Positions 9,940 to 40,341 of a stretch of DNA of 64,000 bases are shown in pieces. How positions within the stretch are numbered: position 1 is the first letter of the stretch; every line of letters starts with the position of its first letter. Under the pieces are notes generated by a model. The model ran no database searches and was not told the DNA's origin. It saw only the letters and a program-made list of their open reading frames with translations. A program made the position numbers and the translations under genes. The DNA comes from Gekko japonicus (taxonomy: Eukaryota). The DNA is taken from the NCBI RefSeq assembly GCF_001447785.1, contig NW_015169789.1:886393-950392 (forward strand), in the 5' to 3' direction.

Positions 9940-12090
9940 ATTGCATTTGTATTCCGCCCTTCCCACATGTGGGCTCAAGGCAGGTAACATCAAATTTCAT
10001 TTACAATATAAACAGTGATCAGATTAAAATTTAAAAATTAGAGTAAAAGTTTAACTAAAATGGCGACATAGCTGTCTATATTAGCTCCAGCAGCTGGATA
10101 GGTGGTAACCATAGGCAATTTCAGTAAGACCGCTATGCAGGGGAGGCCATGAGATTGAATGTAACCGAAGGCCTGGCAGAATAGCTCCATTCTGCAGGCC
10201 CTGAGGAACTGTAATAAGTCCCGCAGGACCCTGATCTTACGTGGGAGCTTGTTCAACCAGGTGGGGGCTAGGACTGAGAAAGCCCTGGCCCTGGTTGAGG
10301 CTAGATGGTCGTCCTTTGGGCCAGGGATAACCAGAAGCTGTTGCTCAGTGGAGCATAAGACTCTCTGGGGGGGTATATGGGGAGAGGCGATCTCTTAGAT
10401 ATGTCAGTCCTAGGCCGCTTAAGGCTTTAAAGGTTAAAACCCTCACCTTGAAGCAGATCCGGTACTCAAATGGTAGCCAGTGCAATTGGCAGAGCACCGG
10501 CTGAATGTGCGCCCACATAGGCATCGCAGTCAGTAGGTGAGCCACCGCATTTTGCACCAGCTGGAGTTTCCGGATCAGGTTCATGGGTAAGTCTGCATAG
10601 AGCGAGTTACAGTAATCCAGCCTGGAAGTGACAATTGCATGGGTCACAGTGGCCAGATCCTGAGTGGAGAGGTAGGGAGCCAGTTGCCTGACCTGCCGGA
10701 GATGATAAAAGGCAGACCTGGGCCTCCATAGAGAGCAAGGCATCCAGAAACATCCCTACATGCCTAACCCTCGAGGTTGGCACAAATGGCGCCCCCCAAG
10801 GTCCAGGAGCCTGATTCCCAACTCTACCCCACCCCGGTCCAGGCACAGGACCTCTGTCTTCAATGGATTAAGTTTCAGCCAAGTCTGCTTTATCCACCCA
10901 GACATGGTCTCTAAGCCCTCTCCAGATTTTCTGGGGCAGAGTCTGGGCGGCTGTCTATCAAAAGACAGAGCTGGGCATCATCAGCATACTGGTGGCGACC
11001 CAGCCCAAACCTCCATACCAACTGGGTGAGAGCCGCATATAGATATTGAACAGCATTGGCGAGAGGATAGCCCCCTGTGGCACTCCACACACTAAGCAGT
11101 GCCGCAGTAGACCCCCTCACCAAGTGCTACCCTCTGCCCCGACCATGGAGAAAGGAGGAAAACCATTGTAAGGCAGAACCCCTAATTCCCATGTCAGCGA
11201 GGCAGTGGGTCAATAGATCATAATCGACTGTGTCAAATGCCGTCAGATCAAGAAGCACTCGCAGCGCTGACCCGCCTCAATACAAATGTCTCCGGAGGTC
11301 ATCTGTGAGGGCGACTAATGCCGTCTCCCTCCCATGGCCAGGGTGGAAACCAGACTGGAATGGGTCCAGGATTGACATCTCATCCAGGAAGGTCTGAAGC
11401 TGGTCAGCCACCGACCTCTCAACCACCTTACCCAGGAACAGCAAGTTCGATACTAGACGGTAGTTGGCCAGGCCTGCAGGGTCCAATGATGGCTTCTTTA
11501 AGAGCAATCGTACCACTGCCTCCTTTAACCCCACCAGATGAAAGGGACAAGCTGATAATCTCTTCCAGGGGACCCAAGCTCCATTCCCATAGGCCTTAAT
11601 TAGCCAAGATGGGCACGGGTCAAGGCTGCAAGTAATAGGTTTTATAGCTGTCAGGATCCTGTCAATATCATCCTGGGAGAGTCCGCTGAAATGGTCCAAA
11701 AATGGACCCAAAGACAGATAAGGGACTTCTAGTTTCATTACTATATCAACTGTGTGAAGAGGTCCTGGTGGAGCAACATGACTGTATCTGTGGAATAGCT
11801 CACAAATCCCTCACAGCCCATAGCCAATTTTCTATTATTTTGTTTGCCTTGAGGCAGTTCAGTTAATGATCTAATAGTTCTAAATAACTGGGTCGGGTGA
11901 GAGCTCACAGACGCAATGGAGGCCACATAGAAATCTTTCTTCACGATCTTCATTACCTTCTCATAGGCTTTCATAAACATCCTATATGATGCTCTTGCCG
12001 CTTTGTCATAAGTACATCGCCACCCTCGCTCTAACCGTCTCAGGTCTCTTTTCATTCTTCATAGCTCTTGGGTATACCACATGGCTTGTT
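9940..12090 (-). mobile_element. 5'-truncated, disrupted L2 LINE (RT region to 3' tail)
   Basis: Fragments TCSLDPCPSWL, NYRLVSNL.FLGKVVE, FQSGF, QYADDAQL, SRLDYCNS and LHWLP in ORFs from 10345 to 12055; L2 tail at ~9940-9990. Confidence 0.9.
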
Positions 12091-12942: not shown

Positions 12943-13168
12943 AAGATTGTGTCATATAGATTCCTACAATCTTGGCATGTCCTTACATTTGTATGTCACC
13001 TCTTCCCAAGGCTTTAGTGTGAATAATTTCATAAAATAAATAACAAAACCCACATAGTGAGTTCAGAAAACATTTAGACAGATGAGAAACATATGATGGG
13101 TTTCCAGTATGCTGAGAGTCAGGAGCTTGTTATGTAAATATTACCATATTATGATAATGGATATGGCT

Positions 13169-13276
13169 CACAGATCACCCATCTCCTGAACTGAGCCAGC
13201 TCGGGTTACTTTCCAATTTTTTTTACCACTCCTTCCTTCCTGCTTTGTTTGGAGTAGGGGAGAGAGAGGGTGTTTT
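13169..13276 (+). repeat. Left copy of the host-DNA direct duplication flanking the Ngaro element
   Basis: Identical to 16972-17099 apart from 14-bp and 6-bp indels. Confidence 0.95.
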
Positions 13277-13712
13277 GCCCCCATACTCGGAATAAAGAGT
13301 CAGACACAGAAAGTGGGATAAAACTATGGGCCACTTTATTAAATTCACAGTCGAGAACAACGGCAAGGGCAAATATGTGAAGCGGCACGATCCGGGCCAG
13401 GGGTCAGCGTTGACCCTTCCCCAGTTGTAGGACGCGGAGCCACCCACCCCCAGCTTGAGCCAACCTGTGTGGCTCCCCACTGGCGGGCACCACGAAAGAC
13501 ATGCCCTGGAGATCCAGCCCCAAGTCGTAGAACTTAAGCGGCCGATCGATCCATGCAGTCCCCAAGGTAGTTTGCCATATTATCCCCGGGTCGCTCAACC
13601 CAAAGGCTAATCTGGCCAAACTCCTATCGCCTGAAGTAATTAATTGGTGCTCGCGTTAGCCGCATCTCAGTTATCAGCCCCAATCCTGCCACAGCCGAGG
13701 TCAAGCCTCAGC

Positions 13713-14314
13713 TTAGGCCGATGCCCCCACCGAGAGGCTTAATGCCTCCTGCAGCCCTTGCCGTATGTCCTCCAAAAAAATGTCATTCCCTTGCTCAGAG
13801 AGGTGTACCCCATCCGGCCTATAAAGCTCCATGCATCTAGGATGAATGCGCGGATGGGGCAGAAAGCGGCCCAACCCCGCATCCAGAACTTTCTTAATAT
13901 CTCTGTTAGCTTTCTGGCGGGCCCGATCAATCCCCTCTGGGCTCAAGACATCGCGCCAGACCCTCCTGGGAATCATTGCCGACCATATTATACTCACCCC
14001 CGGCCAACGTGCCCGGATGATCTGCAAATCCTCAATAGCCTGGAGGGTCAAGGCTTTACCTTTTACCAACCCCAGGTCATTACCTCCCAGGTGCACCACC
14101 AGCACGTCAGGGGGAATGCGCGTGGGCCCCTGAAACAACAAAGACAAGAGGCCGGCCCAGTGAAGTCCATGGTGCCCCTGCCATTCAATGGTGGCCCATT
14201 GACTAAGGCCCAGCTGAGATCCACACGCAGTTCTCCTTGCCCGATGCGCTGCCCAAAAGACAAAGCTGTGGCCACAGATGAGAACCTGCTTCCTCTCAAC
14301 GGTCCCTAAACAAC
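13713..14314 (-). CDS. SGNH/GDSL-type hydrolase of the Ngaro element (~200 aa; frame open from 14333, no ATG before the catalytic Ser)
   Basis: Extending ORF 13713-14147 upstream in frame gives VLICGHSFVFWA (block I Ser, GHS at 14273-14265), then WQGHHGLHW, VVHLGGNDL (block III) and RPDGVHLS (block V). Confidence 0.85.
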
Positions 14315-14403
14315 CTACGAAGGAAATGACAGATTAATCCAAAGAACAGAAAACCATGAAGAGGAAACAGGGGCGCCCACATATTGAAACCACCGTGTAT
14401 ACC

Positions 14404-15350
14404 CTAAGTGGACGGAAAGGGGCGCGCATATGACTTATAGGCGGCAGAGCGCCACCTACCTAGTCGCTGAATGTCCGGAGAAGAGTAACCCATGGCTGCC
14501 GCCGTAGATGCTGCCCCAATCCGAAAGGAATGTGTGCCAAACCTTGCTCCCGACAAGCCCAACTTCGACAGGTCCCGCGTGGTCACTGTCCAAAATTGGT
14601 GCTTAGTAAGCGGACTGCCATCCTCATGGCGAAACAACCAGCCATCATCCCTTCCCCGAACTGCAACATAGCTAACCAGGGCCGACACTGGGCATAGCTC
14701 CGGATCCGCACATGGCCCCAGACTGAGCATAGCCCCCCTTCGGCGCTGGTCAGTCTTGGACCGCCGAACCTTTATGAAAGCCCGACCGGAATGCATGGTA
14801 AGGTCTGCCATAAACAAGGCCTGATCGGAGGAGTCCCCCTTGGACTGTGCGACCAGCTCGCTGACCCTGAGGGCCCCAAAGAAGGCTACCAGGGCTGCTG
14901 CGTGAAAGAGATGTGCCTCAAAGTCAGAGCTACAGACCTGGCCCCACACCCTCTTCAGGCCCTTGAGTACAGCTGGTGAAATCGGCTGCCTGGTGTCCAC
15001 TCGCTGGCCATCCTCCCTAGACCATCCCTCAAGCATTTTCCTAAGCCTAAAGTCATTAGTGTCCTCTCGGTATCCCAATGCCTTGCTGGCGAAAGCCAGG
15101 GCGGAAAGACGACCCTTAATAGAGCGGACTGCAAGCCCCTTACCTTTCAAATCAACGCAGTAGTGGATCAACTGGTCCACTAGCAGGGGCCAAAGCACAT
15201 GATATCCTACCTCCGACCTAAACTCTTCAAATTGGCGTATTGCCCGCTCATAAGATTTTCTGGTACTGGGAGCTATGGCAAGGCCTATTGCCCTACAGGT
15301 CTCTACCTTCCAAGCTGCCACAGCTCCGGGGGGATCCGTGCCGGATGAAG
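14404..15350 (-). CDS. Tyrosine recombinase of the Ngaro element (uninterrupted frame)
   Basis: Catalytic residues R (FFGALRVSEL), K (RRSKTDQ), HxxR (GTHSFRIGAAS), W (LGRWRS) and Y (AYKSYAR) are present, after an N-terminal APSTRKSY binding domain. Confidence 0.9.
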
Positions 15351-16900
15351 ATTGGCTCCAGGGGGTCAGCTGACGAAATCTCTCCATCTGTTTGCGAGAG
15401 AGAGCGTCAGCGACCCCGTTATCAACCCCCGGAACATGCTTGGCCAAAAAAAAATATTAAGTCTCAGACAGCGCAGCGTGAAGGCTCTGACTAGGGCCAT
15501 AACCCACGTGGACCTAGACGTCAATGAGTTAATAACGTGGACCACTGCTAAGTTATCGCACCAAAATTGAACCCTGTGATTAGCGAATGCATCGCCCCAG
15601 AGCCAAACAGCGACCAGTATGGGGAAAAACTCAAGGAAAGCTGAGACCTGCCACCACCCAATCCAGGGGCCAATTTTCTGCGCACCAATGCCCTTGGAAA
15701 AATACCCCGAAGCCCAGAGAACCTACCGCATCTGAGTGCACTTGCAGCTCTGCCCTAAGCCGAAGGTCCGTCCTCCAAAAAGACACCCCATTAAATTCAC
15801 GTAAAAACTCATGCCAGACCTGCATGTCAGCTCGCATGCTGGAAGTGACACGAGTCCTATGATGTGGGAGGCGGAGGCCGGACATAGCATCACAAAGCCG
15901 CCGCAGGAACGCACGGCCTGGGGCCACCACTTTACAAGCAAAATTAACGTGACCCGCTAACTGTTGAAGCTCCAACAGCGATACCTTCTGCTTAGACAGA
16001 AGACTGGAGACCCGGCTCAACAAATCTCGCACTTTGCTCTCAGGCAGGCGGGACAGCTGAGCTACCGTATCGAGCTCAATACCAAGAAAAGTCAAGCGCG
16101 AGACTGGTCCCTCTGTTTTTTCATGAGCAAGCTACACCCCCAATTCGGTGGTTAGCTCCAGAAAACCATCAAGCAGTGACCTACATTGCCCAGACCCTGC
16201 AGGCCCAACAAAAAGGAAATCATCCAGACAGTGCGCCACCCCCAGAAGACCCGAACTCTTTCGGACCACCCACTCCAAAAAGGAGCTGAAGCGCTCAAAA
16301 GCTGCACATGACACCGAGCAGCCCATAGGCAGTGCCCGGTCCATGTAAAACTGTCCCTCAAATGAGAAACCTAGCAGCTCAAAATCCCGTGGGTGCACGG
16401 GGAGGAGGCGAAACACGGACTTGACGTCGCATTTGGCCAACTCTGCGCCTGGACCACAGCGCCGTACCACCCGCACAGCCTGGTCAAAGACGTGTACCGC
16501 ACTGAGCATAAGTCATCCGGGATCCCATCGTTAACTGAGCTTCCCTTGAGAAATGAAAGATGATGAATGTGCCGGAATTCACCAGGTGCTTTTTTGGGTA
16601 CTACTCCAAGCGGAGAAACCCAGAGGTTGGGCACAGGGGGTGTGGCAAACGGACCCAGGATCCTGCCTTCCACCCTTTCCTTCTCAATCTTTTTCCTAAC
16701 TACTGCTTCCAAACCCCGAACAGAAGAAAGGTTGTTGGCCATAACGGGTCCCCGCGGGCCAACATATGGTATACGAAAGCCAAACTTAAAACCCTCTAAC
16801 AGATACGTGGCGTCATTTCTAAGGGGGTAATTCACCAGCCAAGCCTCAAGAACCGTCAGGTTAATGGGGCTGGGCCCCTTTACCATGAGCTTGGTTGCCT
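15300..16900 (-). pseudogene. Disrupted RT/RNase H of the Ngaro element
   Basis: Motifs SPLGVVPKK, AKCDVKSVFRLLPV, LPMGC, HCLDDF (YxDD motif with Y to C), TFLGIELD, HSDA and KHVPGVDNGVADALSR. Frameshifts near 16490, 15640 and 15363 and an in-frame stop at 16134-16132. Confidence 0.88.
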
Positions 16901-16971
16901 CCACCACCCCCTTGCCTCTTTTGCCCTCTCCTAGGTCGAGCCTTGGGGCAGTTGCTAAAGGAGTGTGGGCC

Positions 16972-17099
16972 CACAGATCACCCATCTCCTGAACTTTGTC
17001 CTGAAAACTGAGCCAGCTCGGGTTACTTTCCAATTTTTTTTACCACTCCTTCCTTCCTGCTTTGTTTGATGGTGGAGTAGGGGAGAGAGAGGGTGTTTT
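16972..17099 (+). repeat. Right copy of the host-DNA direct duplication flanking the Ngaro element
   Basis: cacagatcacccatctcctgaa...gagagagggtgtttt repeats 13169-13276. Confidence 0.95.
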
Positions 17100-17451
17100 C
17101 TCCTCCGGCCTCCCAGTTGCTGCTCCCTTTCCCTTTGTATATAATTGGTCAGAGCTGAAACTAGCAGAACTATGTAGTGAGTGTGAAAGATCCCACCCCT
17201 CCCTATTCCAGATCTTTGGAACAAAAGAGGCTGGAAAGAACATTTGGACCTTGTTGGACTCTTTTTTTCACCCAAATTGCATGACCCCCCATTGTTTGTT
17301 TCTTCTTCCCAGAATGAAAGTGCTGCAATCCAACTACAGCAATTAAACTAGAGTCTGTGAGCCTGGCAGCATCTAACACCAATCCTAAAATCAGGACCTA
17401 GAAAATCTGCTTTTTTTCCTCCTTCATTTCTTAATTTTCATAACTTCTGCC

Positions 17452-22107: not shown

Positions 22108-23040
22108 TAGAATCATAGAATCATGGAGATGGAAGGGACCTCCAGGAAATTCACAAAAACCTCCCCCTCCACACCCGCAGTGCCCGCTGTTCCACGCCCA
22201 GAAGATGACAAAAAAACCTCCAGGATCCCTGGCCAAACTGGCCTGGAGAATAAATTGCTTCCTGACCCCAAAGTGGCAATCAGCATTTCCCTGGGCGTGT
22301 AAGAAAGGGCCACAAAAACTAAGCACTGAGGCAACCCTTCCTGCACTCTCACTCATGATCTGCCTAAATTCACAGAATCCGTATTGCTGTCAGATGGCCA
22401 TCTAGCCTCTGTTTGAAAACCTCTAAAGAAGGAGAGCCCACCACCTCCCGAGGAAGCCTGTTGCACTGAGGAACCACTCTAACTGTCAGGAAGTTCTTCC
22501 TAATGTTTAGGTGAAAACTCTTATGATTTAATTTCAACCCATTGGTTCTGGTCCAACCTTCTGAGACAACAGAAACAACCCCGTACCATCCTCTAGATGA
22601 TAGCCCTTCAAGTACTTGAAGATGGTTATCATATTACCTCTCAGTCATCTCCTCTCCAGGCTAAACATACCCAGCTCCTTCAACCTTTCCTCATAGGACT
22701 TGGTCTCTATACCCCTCACCATCTTCATTGCTCTCCTCTGGACACATTCCAGCTTGTCTATATCCTTCCTAAATTGTGGTGCCCAAAACTGACCACAATT
22801 CTCTAGGTGAGGTCTAACCAGAGCAAAGTGGTACCATCACTCTGCGTGATCTGGACACTATACTCCTGCTGATACAGCCCAAAATCGCATTTGCCTTTTT
22901 AGCCACCGCATCACACTGCTGACTCCTGTTCAGTGTATGGTCCACTAAGACCCCTAGATCTTTTTCACACATACTGCTGCCAAGACAAGCCTCCCCAACC
23001 TATAATTCTGCATTTGATTTTCCTACCCAAATGCAGAACC
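22108..23040 (-). mobile_element. CR1 LINE 3' part
   Basis: (ATTCTATG)n tail at the left end; near-identical reverse complement of ~39370-40341. Confidence 0.9.
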
Positions 23041-31553: not shown

Positions 31554-34452
31554 CTTGCTTCTCACCTCGCTGTCTGACAATCTGGGATTCAATGAATTCA
31601 GTCACACAACGATAATGAAAAGGGCAAAAGAACGACTTGCTCACAACTCCTTGATGGTGAGAGTGTGGGTTCTCAGAAAGCTCAGCCTACGCTGGTCCAT
31701 TCTTCACCTATGCCAGATTGGGCCTCATATCAGGAAAGGTGCACTGCTAGCTAGCCAGAATGGCAGAAAGGAACCTGCATATGAATTGCCCCTTAATACT
31801 TCAGAAAAGGGCTTTGCATGTTTGGGCATTATTTATTTATTATTTATTATTTCAACTTGATATACCGCCCTAACCCGGGTAGGGGTCTCTGGGCGGTTTA
31901 CATTTTTGGGTGCTAGTCACACAGATGATCTCCACCTGCACAGAGATGCACAAGAGGACTGTACTACAGGGCCAGCAAGTGCTAGGGAACTAGCCACTGT
32001 ACACGTGGGGGGGTCTGGTTCTTGGCTTCCTTAGCTGGAAAGCAAGGAGCTGAGACTGCATGAAATATTAATGCTGTAAATGGTGCAATTTCATCTGCAT
32101 TCAGCCAACTTCATGTATATTTCAGAGTGTGATGGGATGATAATGTTGTGCCACTGAGGCAAAATGTGAGGGGTGCAAGGTGCTGGGATAAGGGGGCATT
32201 ACTTGAGTCTTGTGTACTGGCATACTCGATAGTCTGGCCAACCATGGGTCTCAGGTTCACTGGAAGAAACATTAGAATGTTCAGGATGGCAATTTGTAGA
32301 TAGGTGTTCTCTAAACTGGAAAGGCATGGCGTTGCCTCCCAAAGTATTAACTACATCCCGCGAAAAGGATGATCTCCTAGTGCCAATTCAAGACAGCCCC
32401 CAAAGCCCCCAAGAAACAGCCATCTTATTGCTAATGCTGGACACACCTGTGGTTTAAATCCCTGGGTTATGGGGCAAGAACAGGCCAGTTTGTGTATCCC
32501 TTGCTTCTCATATTCCTTCTAGATGATTGACTACGACAAGCAGCAGGTTCATGAGGAACCATGAGGGTAAGAAGATAATAATTTGAAAATGTCTCCCCTG
32601 CACACCAAAATTTCTCTATTGAGGCTTCTATGAAATCTCAGGGACTTGATCAGGCCAATTTCCCCATCTCCCTCTTTTTTGCCCTTTAATTCACACACCC
32701 CTTGTCGTTTCCTGTGAGGAAAAGACATACCCATGGGAAAACAACTGAGATCAGGAAAGCAGCACGGGAAAAGGTTTTAAAATATGCCTCCCCCTGTGCT
32801 GAAACCCTGTTCTGAAGCCCCTACTCCACCTGGCTGCAACAATTTTCGTCTTTTTAAATTTGGAGTAGATCTTAGAGACAAAGCTCCCTGGTCCTGTGGA
32901 CCTGAGCAACTTTTTTCCTGGCAAGAGGATCTTGTGACACAAGCTGAAATTCACCAGTGAAGATTTTCTTTGTATGGAGATTGAGGGATAGAAAAGCTTC
33001 TGTTGCTCAGTACCTGCTCATTGTACAGCTGTTACCAACCAGCAGCTCCAAATTCACTGAGCACATATGTACCTATAGTATGCTTACATGCTTCCTTGTG
33101 ACCACATATACAAGATCATTTCTATTTGTGAGCATTGTATGTTTTCCCCTAGAGATTGTCAGTTGGAGGCTCAGTATTTCCTCAAAATACAAAACTGGAT
33201 TTTACTTAGTTGAATTTTTAGTCTGACTAATGCCAAAAGCTTAATAGACAGAAAATTTCTAAAATCTCCCAGCATATTCCCATCTATTTTCCATCTACTG
33301 CTACTCACACCCTCTCCTATGCCTCCTCACAACCTAGATGTTTTCTCCAAGCTATCACTACCTTCCTCGAGGGGAATAATCCCCTCACTCTCCCATTTCA
33401 CCCATATTCTAAACCAGAAGGAATCTAGTCTTGACTTTCATTCCTTTCTTGTCCTTGCATCAGGGACCAATAGCAACCCCTCAACTCCTTTCTCAGTTCG
33501 AAACATTCCAGTTTAACAGCTCAGATGTGAGACAGAATAGGATAATTTTCAGTGTACAGTATTTTATATTGTAATAGGAAATTTATCTTGGGTTTTTATT
33601 GGATTGCTAATATTACCTGCCTTAAACTCAGAGCAAGTTACATAAATAAACGTGTGTTCGGCAAAATTGTCCCTCATATTTTCCTCTGCTTCCTGCATAG
33701 TGTTTCTGCCTGATTCAGAAGGGATTCCGTTCCGTCTGTGACAGATAACCAGACAGTGTCTGCTCACATAAGTGGCCAATCCAAGAATAAGCAGGTCCCC
33801 TCTTTTGTCTATTTCCAGAGACTGGGAAAAGAGGGACTTTACAGAAGTGGATTTATCCAAAAGGGACTCTGGAGGAATCCCAGTTGTATACCTCAATAGT
33901 TGTCTGATGTGCTATGAGCAGCCCATCAACGATGTTCTGGTCCACCCAAGTAAAGTATTTTATGGGGAAAAAGCTGTTTGCTGTAGGAAGAATATAAATT
34001 CAGCATTCAATTAAGATGCTTCCTGATTGCTCTTCCTTTGTGAGTTTCCCCTTCTTAATCTGTGTCTACTAAACATTAAATGGTTTCCTTCCTATTGCAA
34101 AAATCAATTCCTTTGCCCACTTCACTGGCACATCATATTCAGAAGCCAGCTTTGACTTTTAGAGCTATTAGCCCAATCACTTTGCAAGGAGACCTGCCAC
34201 CTATAGTTTCCCATTTGTCTCTTTGTTAGATATGTAATCCTGTTACCTACTGGCAAGTTCCAGAAGGAAATTAGGTTAGGTCTTATGCTTTTGAAATATG
34301 AATACTTAATTTATATTGAAAACCTGAGAAAGGATGTCTGGAAATACTTAGAAGGCATGCTTCAAAGGCCACACCAAAACATGGTTGGCGTTAAACCCTG
34401 AAAGTAGCAGCAGAACTGCATGCTCCTTTCTCCCCTCACACTATAAGCTAAT

Positions 34453-34641
34453 AAAGTTTGAGTCCAGTGGCACCTTTAAGACCAACAAAGTTTCATTCAT
34501 AGTGTAAGCTTTCATGGGCAAAGAAGTGTGCTTTGCACACAAAAGCTTACACTTTGAATAAAACTTTGTTGGTCTTAAAGGTGCCACTGGACTCAAACTT
34601 TGTTCTGCTGCTTCAGACCAACACGGTTACCCCACCTGAAT
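34453..34641 (+). mobile_element. Penelope-like element remnant with inverted terminal duplication
   Basis: 60-bp inverted repeat 34453-34512 / 34542-34601 (2 mismatches). The loop holds the hammerhead remnant aagaagtgtgctttgcacacaaaagc. TSD-like ataagctaataa at 34443-34454 and 34640-34651. Confidence 0.8.
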
Positions 34642-39019: not shown

Positions 39020-40341
39020 ATTAAAATGTAGGAGTATCCGGGTAACTACCAACCCATCAGCTTGACATTTATACCTGGGAAAGTTTTAGAACAAATAATC
39101 CTTGCACCCAAAGAGTGCTTGTGAATGGTTCCTCATCTTCTTGGAGAGGAATGACAAGTGGACTGCCTCAAGGATCTGTCCTGGGAACAGTTTTGTTAAA
39201 CATCTTTATAAATGATTTGGATGAAGGGATAGAGGGAATGCTTATTAAATTTGCAGATGATACTAAATTGGGAGGGGTAGCAAATATGGTAGAAGACAGA
39301 GTCAGGATACAGGATGATCCTGACAGGCTGGAAAACTGGGCTAAAACAAATAACATGATTTTCAGTGGGGATAAATGTAAAGTTCTGCATTTGGGTAGGA
39401 AAATCAAATGCAGAATTATAGGTTGGGGGAGGCTTGTCTTGGCAGCAGTATGTGTGAAAAAGATCTAGGGGTCTTAGTGGACCATACACTGAACAGGAGT
39501 CAGCAGTGTGATGTGGTGGCTAAAAAGGCAGATGCGATTTTGGGCTGTATCAGCAGGAGTATAGTGTCCAGATCACGCAGAGTGATGGTACCACTTTGCT
39601 CTGGTTAGACCTCACCTAGAGAATTGTGTTCAGTTTTGGGCACCACAATTTAAGAAGGATATAGACAAGCTGGAACGTGTCCAGAGGAGAGCAATGAAGA
39701 TGGTGAGGGGTATAGAGACCAAGTCCTATGAGGAAAGGTTGAAGGAGCTGGGTATGTTTAGCCTGGAGAGGAGACGACTGAGAGGTGATATGATAACCAT
39801 CTTCAAGTACTTGAAGGGCTGTCATCTAGAGGATGGTACGGGGTTGTTTTCTGTTGCCTCATAAGGTCAGACCAGAACCAATGGGTTGAAATCAAATCAG
39901 AAGAGTTTTCAGCTAAACATTAGGAAGAACTTCCTGACAGTTAGAACGGCTCCTCAGTGCAACAGGCTTCCTCGGGAGGTGGTGGGCTCTCCTTCTTTAG
40001 AGGTTTTCAAACAGAGGCTAGATGGCCATTTGACAGCAATGCGGATTCTGTGAATTTAGGCAGATCATGAGTGAGAGGGCAGGAAGGGTTGCCTCAGTGC
40101 TTAGTTCTTGTGGCCCTTTCTTAAATGCCCAGGGAAATGCTGATTACCACTTTGGGGTCAGGAAGCAATTTTTTCTCCAGGCCAGTTTAGCCAGGGATCC
40201 TGGAGGTTTTTTTGTCATCTTCTGGGTATGGAACAGCGGTCACTGTGGATGTGGAGGGGGAGGTATTTGTGAATTTCCTGCCTCATGCAGGGGGTTGGAC
40301 TAGATGACCCTGGAGGTCCTTTCCAACTCTATGATTCTATG
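39020..40341 (+). mobile_element. CR1 LINE 3' part (RT C-half and 3' UTR, with an internal deletion)
   Basis: SGLPQGSVLG...FINDLD...IKFADDTKLGG...KCKVLHLG motifs; tail ccaactctatgattctatg. Confidence 0.92.

Follow-up and report, generated by a model that had tools for sequence, protein, structure and literature searches.

A truncated Ngaro-like element and its esterase frame

We analyzed a 64,000-nucleotide stretch of the Gekko japonicus genome (RefSeq assembly GCF_001447785.1, contig NW_015169789.1, positions 886,393 to 950,392 of the forward strand), hereafter called the window, in whose coordinates all positions are given. On the basis of reading frames and Pfam matches, its minus strand carries, from about 16975 to 13277, part of a tyrosine recombinase (YR) retrotransposon whose last open reading frame (ORF) encodes an SGNH hydrolase (esterase). 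The copy is of Ngaro-like type, broken and truncated at its 5' end. A previous sequence-only reading of the window had proposed that the hydrolase is expressed by splicing. Here, we have followed up this proposal in the window and in homologous proteins, and our results suggest that intact squamate elements of this kind probably use one splice donor in gag and two downstream acceptors to make at least three products, namely Gag, a recombinase with the Gag N-terminus and an SGNH esterase with the same N-terminus. The main features are listed below (a slash marks a predicted exon boundary).

16861..16975, minus strand: putative remnant of the 3' end of a Gag-like ORF1 (last zinc-knuckle residues, basic tail and stop; 38 codons), placed by best local peptide match.
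15303..16900, minus strand: reverse transcriptase (RT) and ribonuclease H (RNase H), split among several frames and interrupted by a stop at 16134-16132; one piece matches RVT_1 (E 0.00098).
15388..15427, minus strand: candidate phase-1 acceptor of the recombinase, ctctctcgcaaacag/ATGGAG, which falls within the RNase H motif ADALSRKQ/MERFR (AG at 15389-15388, exon from 15387).
14404..15387, minus strand: tyrosine recombinase exon (Pfam Phage_integrase, E 3.7e-8, and Phage_int_SAM_1; 59% identity to protein P0041 over 310 aa).
14454..14460, minus strand: phase-1 donor-like site within the recombinase, G/GTAGGT; Gekko japonicus P0001 joins the esterase at the equivalent residue.
14315..14403, minus strand: recombinase-hydrolase spacer, read as the 3' end of an intron (87-nt AG-free, T-rich stretch; TTAAT at 14337-14333; acceptor AG at 14316-14315) from an AG scan and from the junction register common to homologs.
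14334..14357, minus strand: in-frame ATG followed by TAA after seven codons (from translation), the basis of an unspliced alternative.
14305..14307, minus strand: exon start after a second AG, in phase (exon from 14305), without support from homologs.
13713..14314, minus strand: SGNH hydrolase exon, uninterrupted, with GHS at 14273, GGND at 14087 and DGVH at 13814 (Pfam Lipase_GDSL_2, E 1.4e-9, above the curated cut-off).

The Ngaro-like assignment is one of gene content alone. YR and RT/RNase H, the combination by which the order DIRS is recognized, are both present (Pfam Phage_integrase and RVT_1), no methyltransferase could be found by Pfam in the element, in agreement with the lack of such a domain after RNase H in Ngaro-like members, and an SGNH hydrolase ORF lies 3' of YR, a trait found in some of these members. 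Split direct repeats of the A1...B1-A2-B2 type were not observed: apart from the flanking duplication described below, no element-internal repeat longer than 18 nt occurs in 13100-17200, a region from which A1 has been lost with the 5' half and whose 3' element end may be cut. The RNase H pieces have no Pfam match, and we take them to be RNase H from familiar motifs read by eye. The esterase exon (13713-14314) is unbroken, whereas RT/RNase H (15303-16900) contains several frame breaks and a stop; with an exon of 600 nt, this could be due to chance.

The hydrolase frame opens, just as the sequence-only reading had described, after a TAA at 14336-14334, and it continues for 206 codons to 13713. 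The claim of that reading that no ATG lies ahead of the GHS motif was also confirmed: GHS starts at residue 21, and no Met occurs before residue 120 (13976), which lies past both the catalytic Ser and the GGND block. Judging from the motifs, the SGNH catalytic Ser, the block III Asn and the D-x-x-H are all intact (GHS, GGND and DGVH).

The spacer ahead of this frame had been regarded as a long pyrimidine tract with a branch-like ttaat and two acceptors. It is indeed rich in pyrimidines (57 of 87 nt are T or C, against about 50% in the whole element), but no pure tract is present. The branch-like TTAAT could be located at 14337-14333, with the stop codon within it, and both AGs were found, ttcgtag/GT (exon from 14314) and tgtttag/GG (exon from 14305), each entering the hydrolase frame in phase 1. 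Among 241 AGs scored in the element, the acceptor at 14314 has the longest AG-free stretch upstream (87 nt). Markov resamples were AG-free over 86 nt in 4 of 1000 cases at a given position and in 354 of 1000 somewhere in the element, and the signal is therefore informative only because it is located at the start of an ORF. The AG before 14305 ranks 129th of 241 by the same measure; homologs join at the codon of 14314, and 14305 was rejected as the main acceptor. A short out-of-frame ORF (14382-14296, minus strand), whose ATG at 14382 is in the spacer, spans both AGs.

Leader, donor and junctions in homologous proteins

A search with the hydrolase gave 39 proteins, among them named models of Gekko, Eublepharis, Heteronotia, Rhineura, Pogona and Sceloporus, the leader search gave five more, and a profile search over 1.84 billion representatives yielded 148 matches; 182 proteins were compared in all, and none of those with a name was amphibian. 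Many hydrolase homologs are about 340 residues long, with an N-terminal extension composed of a basic start, a Ser/acidic run, two helical segments and a variable linker, after which the SGNH domain begins. The named squamate set comprised 24 models, of which P0036, lacking the block I motif, and P0041, lacking the esterase, were excluded. In all 22 others, the residue 12 positions before block I, whose codon is split by the acceptor at 14314, belongs to the set G, D or A (19, 2 and 1 models, respectively), and Gly occurs in at most seven models in every other column from -26 to -1. This pattern is explained if two exons are joined in phase 1, the first ending in G and the second starting with G, since the split codon then encodes Gly. 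Thus, of the two acceptors proposed earlier, the register of 14314 appears to be conserved among squamate relatives, whereas 14305 found no support in them.

The same pattern could be observed in the larger set. The leader was present in 123 of the 182 proteins, and 30 contained both the leader and SGNH block I; these 30 form 20 groups at 80% identity, 16 at 70% and 7 at 60% (median 50%), and their junction residue is G in 24 cases, D in five and A in one. Ten sequences, including the window, have a hydrophobic stretch upstream, as expected from read-through of the T-rich tract, and a residue pair compatible with YAG/G is found at the junction in seven of them. Three long proteins related to the esterase of the element (P0055, P0146 and P0157) contain two SGNH domains each and are possibly tandem or host-captured copies.

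In 28 of the 30 leader-esterase proteins the leader joins the esterase directly, and the other two (P0087 and P0092) carry an intervening piece of recombinase. These two, together with G. japonicus P0001, the closest relative at 75% identity, would fit a scheme in which the esterase acceptor is mainly served by the recombinase-internal donor G/GTAGGT (14460/14459), giving a fusion without the recombinase C-terminus. However, the P0001 model is partial and comes from a short contig (longest contig 9566 nt), the join points on the recombinase side vary among models and the direct join prevails, so that we find this scheme scarcely credible.

The leader itself appears, from sequence comparison, to be the N-terminus of a full-length Gag-like ORF1. 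In two proteins, P0072 (519 aa) and P0140 (450 aa), the leader stands at the N-terminus and is followed by a WPWG-like motif, a conserved core and two Cys/His zinc-finger motifs; the fingers were read by eye, neither protein has a Pfam match, and the label 'Gag-like' is based on position, on the zinc fingers and on P0100, in which the gag core is joined to the start of the esterase. The leader-esterase protein P0048 shares 98 identities with P0072 over about 205 residues, up to the junction residue (DGPSTSS-G and DGPSTST-G, respectively). A query of the ESM Atlas with the leader gave no usable match, and the gag core retrieved eukaryotic clusters, one with zf-CCCH at 10%, a result that agrees with an ORF1 family but does not establish one.

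A phase-1 donor in gag or the leader, which the sequence-only reading had anticipated, seems to be present in the relatives. We examined nine leader proteins that have a WPWG-like motif and no SGNH domain. Eight of them contain G-K/E, the footprint expected from a phase-1 reading of G/GTRAG, at most 16 residues upstream of the motif (the ninth has G-N). Among control windows the count was 13 of 116, and in shuffles 0 of 5000, statistics that are inflated by the relatedness of the proteins. This footprint sits in unspliced ORF1 proteins and is independent of any predicted join. In addition, one family has the donor at corresponding places in its esterase, recombinase and Gag forms. No leader or donor could be detected within the window by tblastn or hidden Markov model (HMM) searches; the 5' part of gag is missing from this copy, and the donor of the family would have been located in the lost 5' half. 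The window copy, without leader and donor, is a broken relic that cannot produce gag fusions. What may remain of gag is a peptide at 16977-16864, overlapping the start of RT: out of 1725 six-frame peptides, it gave the top score with the C-termini of P0140 (59, against 49 for the next) and P0072 (48 against 42). The RT frame overlaps the end of gag near 16884 on the minus strand (KGPSPIN and KGAQPH), where an ATG is found; P0140 and P0072 differ at the matching residues. No protein with both the leader and an RT core was present among the 123 leader-bearing proteins.

Further investigation of the recombinase revealed a second candidate junction. Past 15339, the first Met of its frame is at 15036, and the frame is closed upstream by a TGA at 15409-15407, leaving no usable ATG. 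The Eublepharis models P0017 (esterase) and P0041 (recombinase) are identical at 137 of 138 leader residues and then diverge, and P0134 and P0172 form a second such pair. With 6 minimal mismatches, the exon start of P0041 maps to cgcaaacag/ATGGAG at 15387, whereas 24 other offsets gave 9-16. In its overlapping frame, the P0041 exon can match the RNase H residues of the window at 7 of 8 places, a value reached by 1 of 36210 other positions. The predicted acceptor at 15387 follows a 49-nt AG-free stretch (rank 10 of 241); the RNase H frame terminates about 27 codons past it, at TAG 15305-15303, overlapping YR, and the window copy is frameshifted just past the acceptor, near a C-run at about 15365. 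Six leader-recombinase proteins enter the recombinase at one register, the first residue being D in four, V in one and G in one; two further proteins composed of leader and recombinase pieces (P0162 and P0170) do not show the acceptor region.

Such junctions are at odds with an earlier view of Ngaro translation. Poulter and Butler (2015), as quoted in the accessible text of PMC13003380, suggested that the Ngaro recombinase is probably translated by programmed frameshifting. If the recombinase, and perhaps the esterase, were made in this way from RT/RNase H, the leader-recombinase models would be minor or artefactual. The arrangement of the frames agrees with this suggestion, the recombinase being in the -1 frame relative to RNase H and overlapping it from 15407 to 15303. 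On the other hand, no canonical slippery heptamer (X XXY YYZ, with Y = A/U) occurs in the overlap or in the spacer of the window copy, the six leader-recombinase proteins share a single register, and an in-frame stop separates the recombinase region from the esterase in the window. Frameshifting in place of splicing thus appears quite improbable, and the two routes could coexist.

Several points weigh against the splicing programme. All relatives are predicted proteins, and gene predictors can copy one model across loci; the families are also interrelated and the counts are not independent. At column -20, 19 of 22 models have a residue with a G-initial codon; such residues are frequent in the leader, and only the G/D specificity of the junction is informative. 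In 32 esterase proteins without a scored leader, the junction residue is G in 21, D in 3 and other in 8 (six further esterase proteins were too short for this scoring). The polypyrimidine tract of the recombinase acceptor is weak (19 of 40), which might be expected from coding constraint, and compatibility with the RNase H frame in the six leader-recombinase proteins is 7, 7, 6, 5, 4 and 4 of 7, that is, only 4-5 in three of them. The match of the gag remnant is not significant (HMM E 2.1; BLASTP not significant against P0140). None of 2795 candidates proved to be a longer leader-bearing protein, in a search that also missed the known P0041. Finally, the spacer contains an in-frame ATG at 14357, overlooked in the sequence-only reading, seven codons ahead of the TAA (MVFCSLD, then stop), and the read-through proteins P0061, P0069, P0084 and P0096 start with Met 18-25 residues before block I.

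The last two observations would be explained if the esterase were translated unspliced from a spacer ATG, by reinitiation or from an internal promoter, and if the TAA were a private mutation of a dead copy. No stop interrupts the frame between 14405, at least, and the TAA, and the four ORFs all overlap in the Xenopus families of PMC9210276, according to its accessible text. However, the Met positions of the four proteins disagree with one another and with that of the window (-26), the TAA sits inside the branch-like motif, and the 30 leader fusions with a single register, as well as the donor footprint, would be left unexplained. ORF callers may write GTG or TTG starts as Met, which is possible for these four proteins. 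We regard unspliced translation as unlikely.

We also considered whether the fusions could be artefacts of gene prediction, in which an upstream ORF with an ATG is joined to domains lacking one at the nearest AG and the resulting model is then copied by homology. Clear artefactual joins do exist, such as P0081 (esterase start with unrelated sequence), P0043 and P0001/P0092 (recombinase piece with esterase). Nevertheless, the G-K/E footprint in unspliced ORF1 proteins needs no join, one family shows the donor at matching places in all three of its forms (Gag, recombinase and esterase), and several RefSeq models carry isoform X1/X2 labels, which usually reflect transcript variants. An origin of the fusions in gene prediction is, in our opinion, very unlikely. 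Each of these alternatives covers part of the evidence only.

Flanks of the element and other features of the window

The remaining features of the element are as follows.

16972..17099, minus strand: upstream copy of a flanking duplication of about 110-128 bp, presumably host sequence, from repeat comparison.
13277..13712, minus strand: 3' non-coding region with AATAAA at 13340-13335, from sequence reading.
13169..13276, minus strand: downstream copy of the flanking duplication, from repeat comparison.

The truncated element sits between the two direct copies of this duplication (about 110-128 bp; 16972-17099 and 13169-13276), which are identical except for two indels of 6 and 14 nt. To our knowledge, target duplications are not expected from YR integration, and the duplication is therefore likely to have originated by repair-mediated capture or later rearrangement. 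In the 3' region (13277-13712, minus strand), the AATAAA is followed by a GT-rich stretch, and the insert continues for about 60 nt further, without a poly(A) tail; no internal B1/B2 repeat was found in this region.

We scanned 40 of the 128 long ORFs of the window for host gene context, and two RT fragments were matched and nothing else. These other RT fragments, at 10345-12058 on the minus strand (RVT_1 at 11280-11810) and 39046-39468 on the plus strand (RVT_1 at 39046-39465), are probably derived from elements without long terminal repeats (LTRs). The window also contains a young repeat of about 900 bp in two inverted copies (22143-23039 and 39382-40280, 94-100% complementary) and a near-perfect palindrome at 34450-34604, with 74-nt arms and a 7-nt loop, which is possibly a miniature inverted-repeat transposable element.

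Proposed expression programme and related systems

On the basis of these results, we consider it likely that intact squamate Ngaro-like elements are expressed in the following way. Alternative splicing of a single transcript would yield no fewer than three proteins. Unspliced RNA would encode the full Gag-like ORF1 (leader, WPWG motif, core and zinc fingers). Splicing from a phase-1 donor a few codons before WPWG to the acceptor within the RNase H coding region (15387 in the window) would give a Gag(N)-recombinase, and splicing from the same donor to the acceptor past the recombinase stop (14314) would give a Gag(N)-SGNH esterase, the common leader providing the start codon for both enzymes. 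The sequence-only reading had envisaged either a Gag-esterase fusion or a stand-alone message similar to that of a retroviral envelope (env) gene. The comparisons favor the former, with about 125-205 residues of the ORF1 N-terminus joined in phase 1 at the codon of 14314, and do not favor the latter.

An AlphaFold model of P0017 (mean predicted local distance difference test score 52.7), which we used for secondary-structure layout only, has helices at 36-52 and 74-90, a low-confidence coil at 94-144 and the first strand at 147. The junction would thus be placed, with low confidence, in the coil between the leader helices and the first SGNH strand. By analogy with ORF1p of the long interspersed nuclear element (LINE) ZfL2-1, the two helical segments of the leader could allow both enzymes to co-assemble with Gag particles.

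The element type and its hydrolase are already known, and the splicing programme appears to be undescribed. In the accessible text of PMC9210276, a hydrolase ORF is reported in amphibian Ngaro elements, Xenopus DIRS-53_XT and DIRS-54_XT, and the hydrolase of YR retrotransposons is said there and in PMC6681497 to have no proven function. The Xenopus elements with a Hydro-SGNH ORF have the same order (gag - RT/RNase H - YR - SGNH) and overlapping frames; they were reported for amphibians, whereas the present family is from squamates and has predicted spliced Gag-N fusions of SGNH and YR. Neither 'splic' nor 'intron' gave a match in the accessible text of PMC9210276, and no element-intrinsic splicing could be found in that of PMC7192593, PMC6681497, PMC4157794, PMC3783388, PMC8547959 or PMC3266345. 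Likewise, no description of spliced Gag fusions in Ngaro or DIRS elements was present among the matches listed, whose coverage is thin for subscription papers and Repbase notes. The programme, if it holds, would be new, and it conflicts with the standing frameshift suggestion for the recombinase. In predicted proteins, it is well supported.

Outside YR elements, the sequence-only reading had noted a resemblance to the SGNH esterases of LINE ORF1p. The ZfL2-1 ORF1 esterase (4C1B) is the best match among solved structures, and the match is weak (E 0.0056). As far as described in the accessible text of PMC3905857, ZfL2-1 ORF1p has a similar layout of basic N-terminal peptide, helical/coiled-coil segment, poorly conserved linker and SGNH esterase; it is, however, one continuous ORF1 that replaces Gag, whereas in the present family the architecture would be reached by predicted splicing, beside a full Gag. 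Being the last ORF of a YR element, the SGNH frame is not the ORF1 of a non-LTR element, ahead of an endonuclease-RT ORF2; membership in the esterase-type LINE ORF1p was rejected, and the likeness is one of architecture only.

Individual aspects of the programme can be found in three other systems, according to the accessible parts of their sources. In Drosophila errantiviruses of the idefix subclade, the 3' ORF for Env is spliced to a Gag peptide (bioRxiv 10.1101/2023.08.03.551782); the cargo there is an F-type envelope protein, whereas here it would be an esterase and an integrating enzyme, with a Gag segment of 125-205 residues. Foamy virus Pol is an enzyme made from a spliced subgenomic RNA, with no frameshifting, and its acceptor lies within a different coding region, which a cited title gives as gag (PMC7828637); Pol is separate from Gag, whereas the recombinase here would bear the Gag N-terminus and use an acceptor within RNase H. 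The bdelloid Vesta LTR retrotransposons encode Gag and carry an SGNH/GDSL ORF3 in the env position, and ORF3s are typically made from spliced messages (PMC5408684); in contrast to the present family, these elements have a DDE integrase and GDSL ORFs without coiled-coil or transmembrane segments, and no Gag fusion is described for them in the accessible text of PMC5408684.

These observations define precise predicted junctions for both the recombinase and the esterase, and hence what would be their real N-termini; work on the bare ORFs would overlook the Gag leader. They would also explain the squamate gene models of about 340 residues that are annotated as 'uncharacterized' as splice products of a transposon. 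More tentatively, the hydrolase-bearing Ngaro elements of vertebrates in general might use a retrovirus-like scheme of alternative splicing, with one gag donor and two acceptors, in which the recombinase and an esterase that binds lipids would each follow the N-terminal helices of Gag and be built into the particle, an extension that we hold possible but somewhat doubtful. If true, such a vertebrate-wide programme would take the place of frameshifting as the hypothesis for how the recombinase is expressed, and the esterase would act as a membrane-targeting module, similar to that of LINE ORF1p, displayed on the Gag particle. Our results suggest that a Gag-encoding element has reached the architecture of ZfL2-1 ORF1p via splicing.
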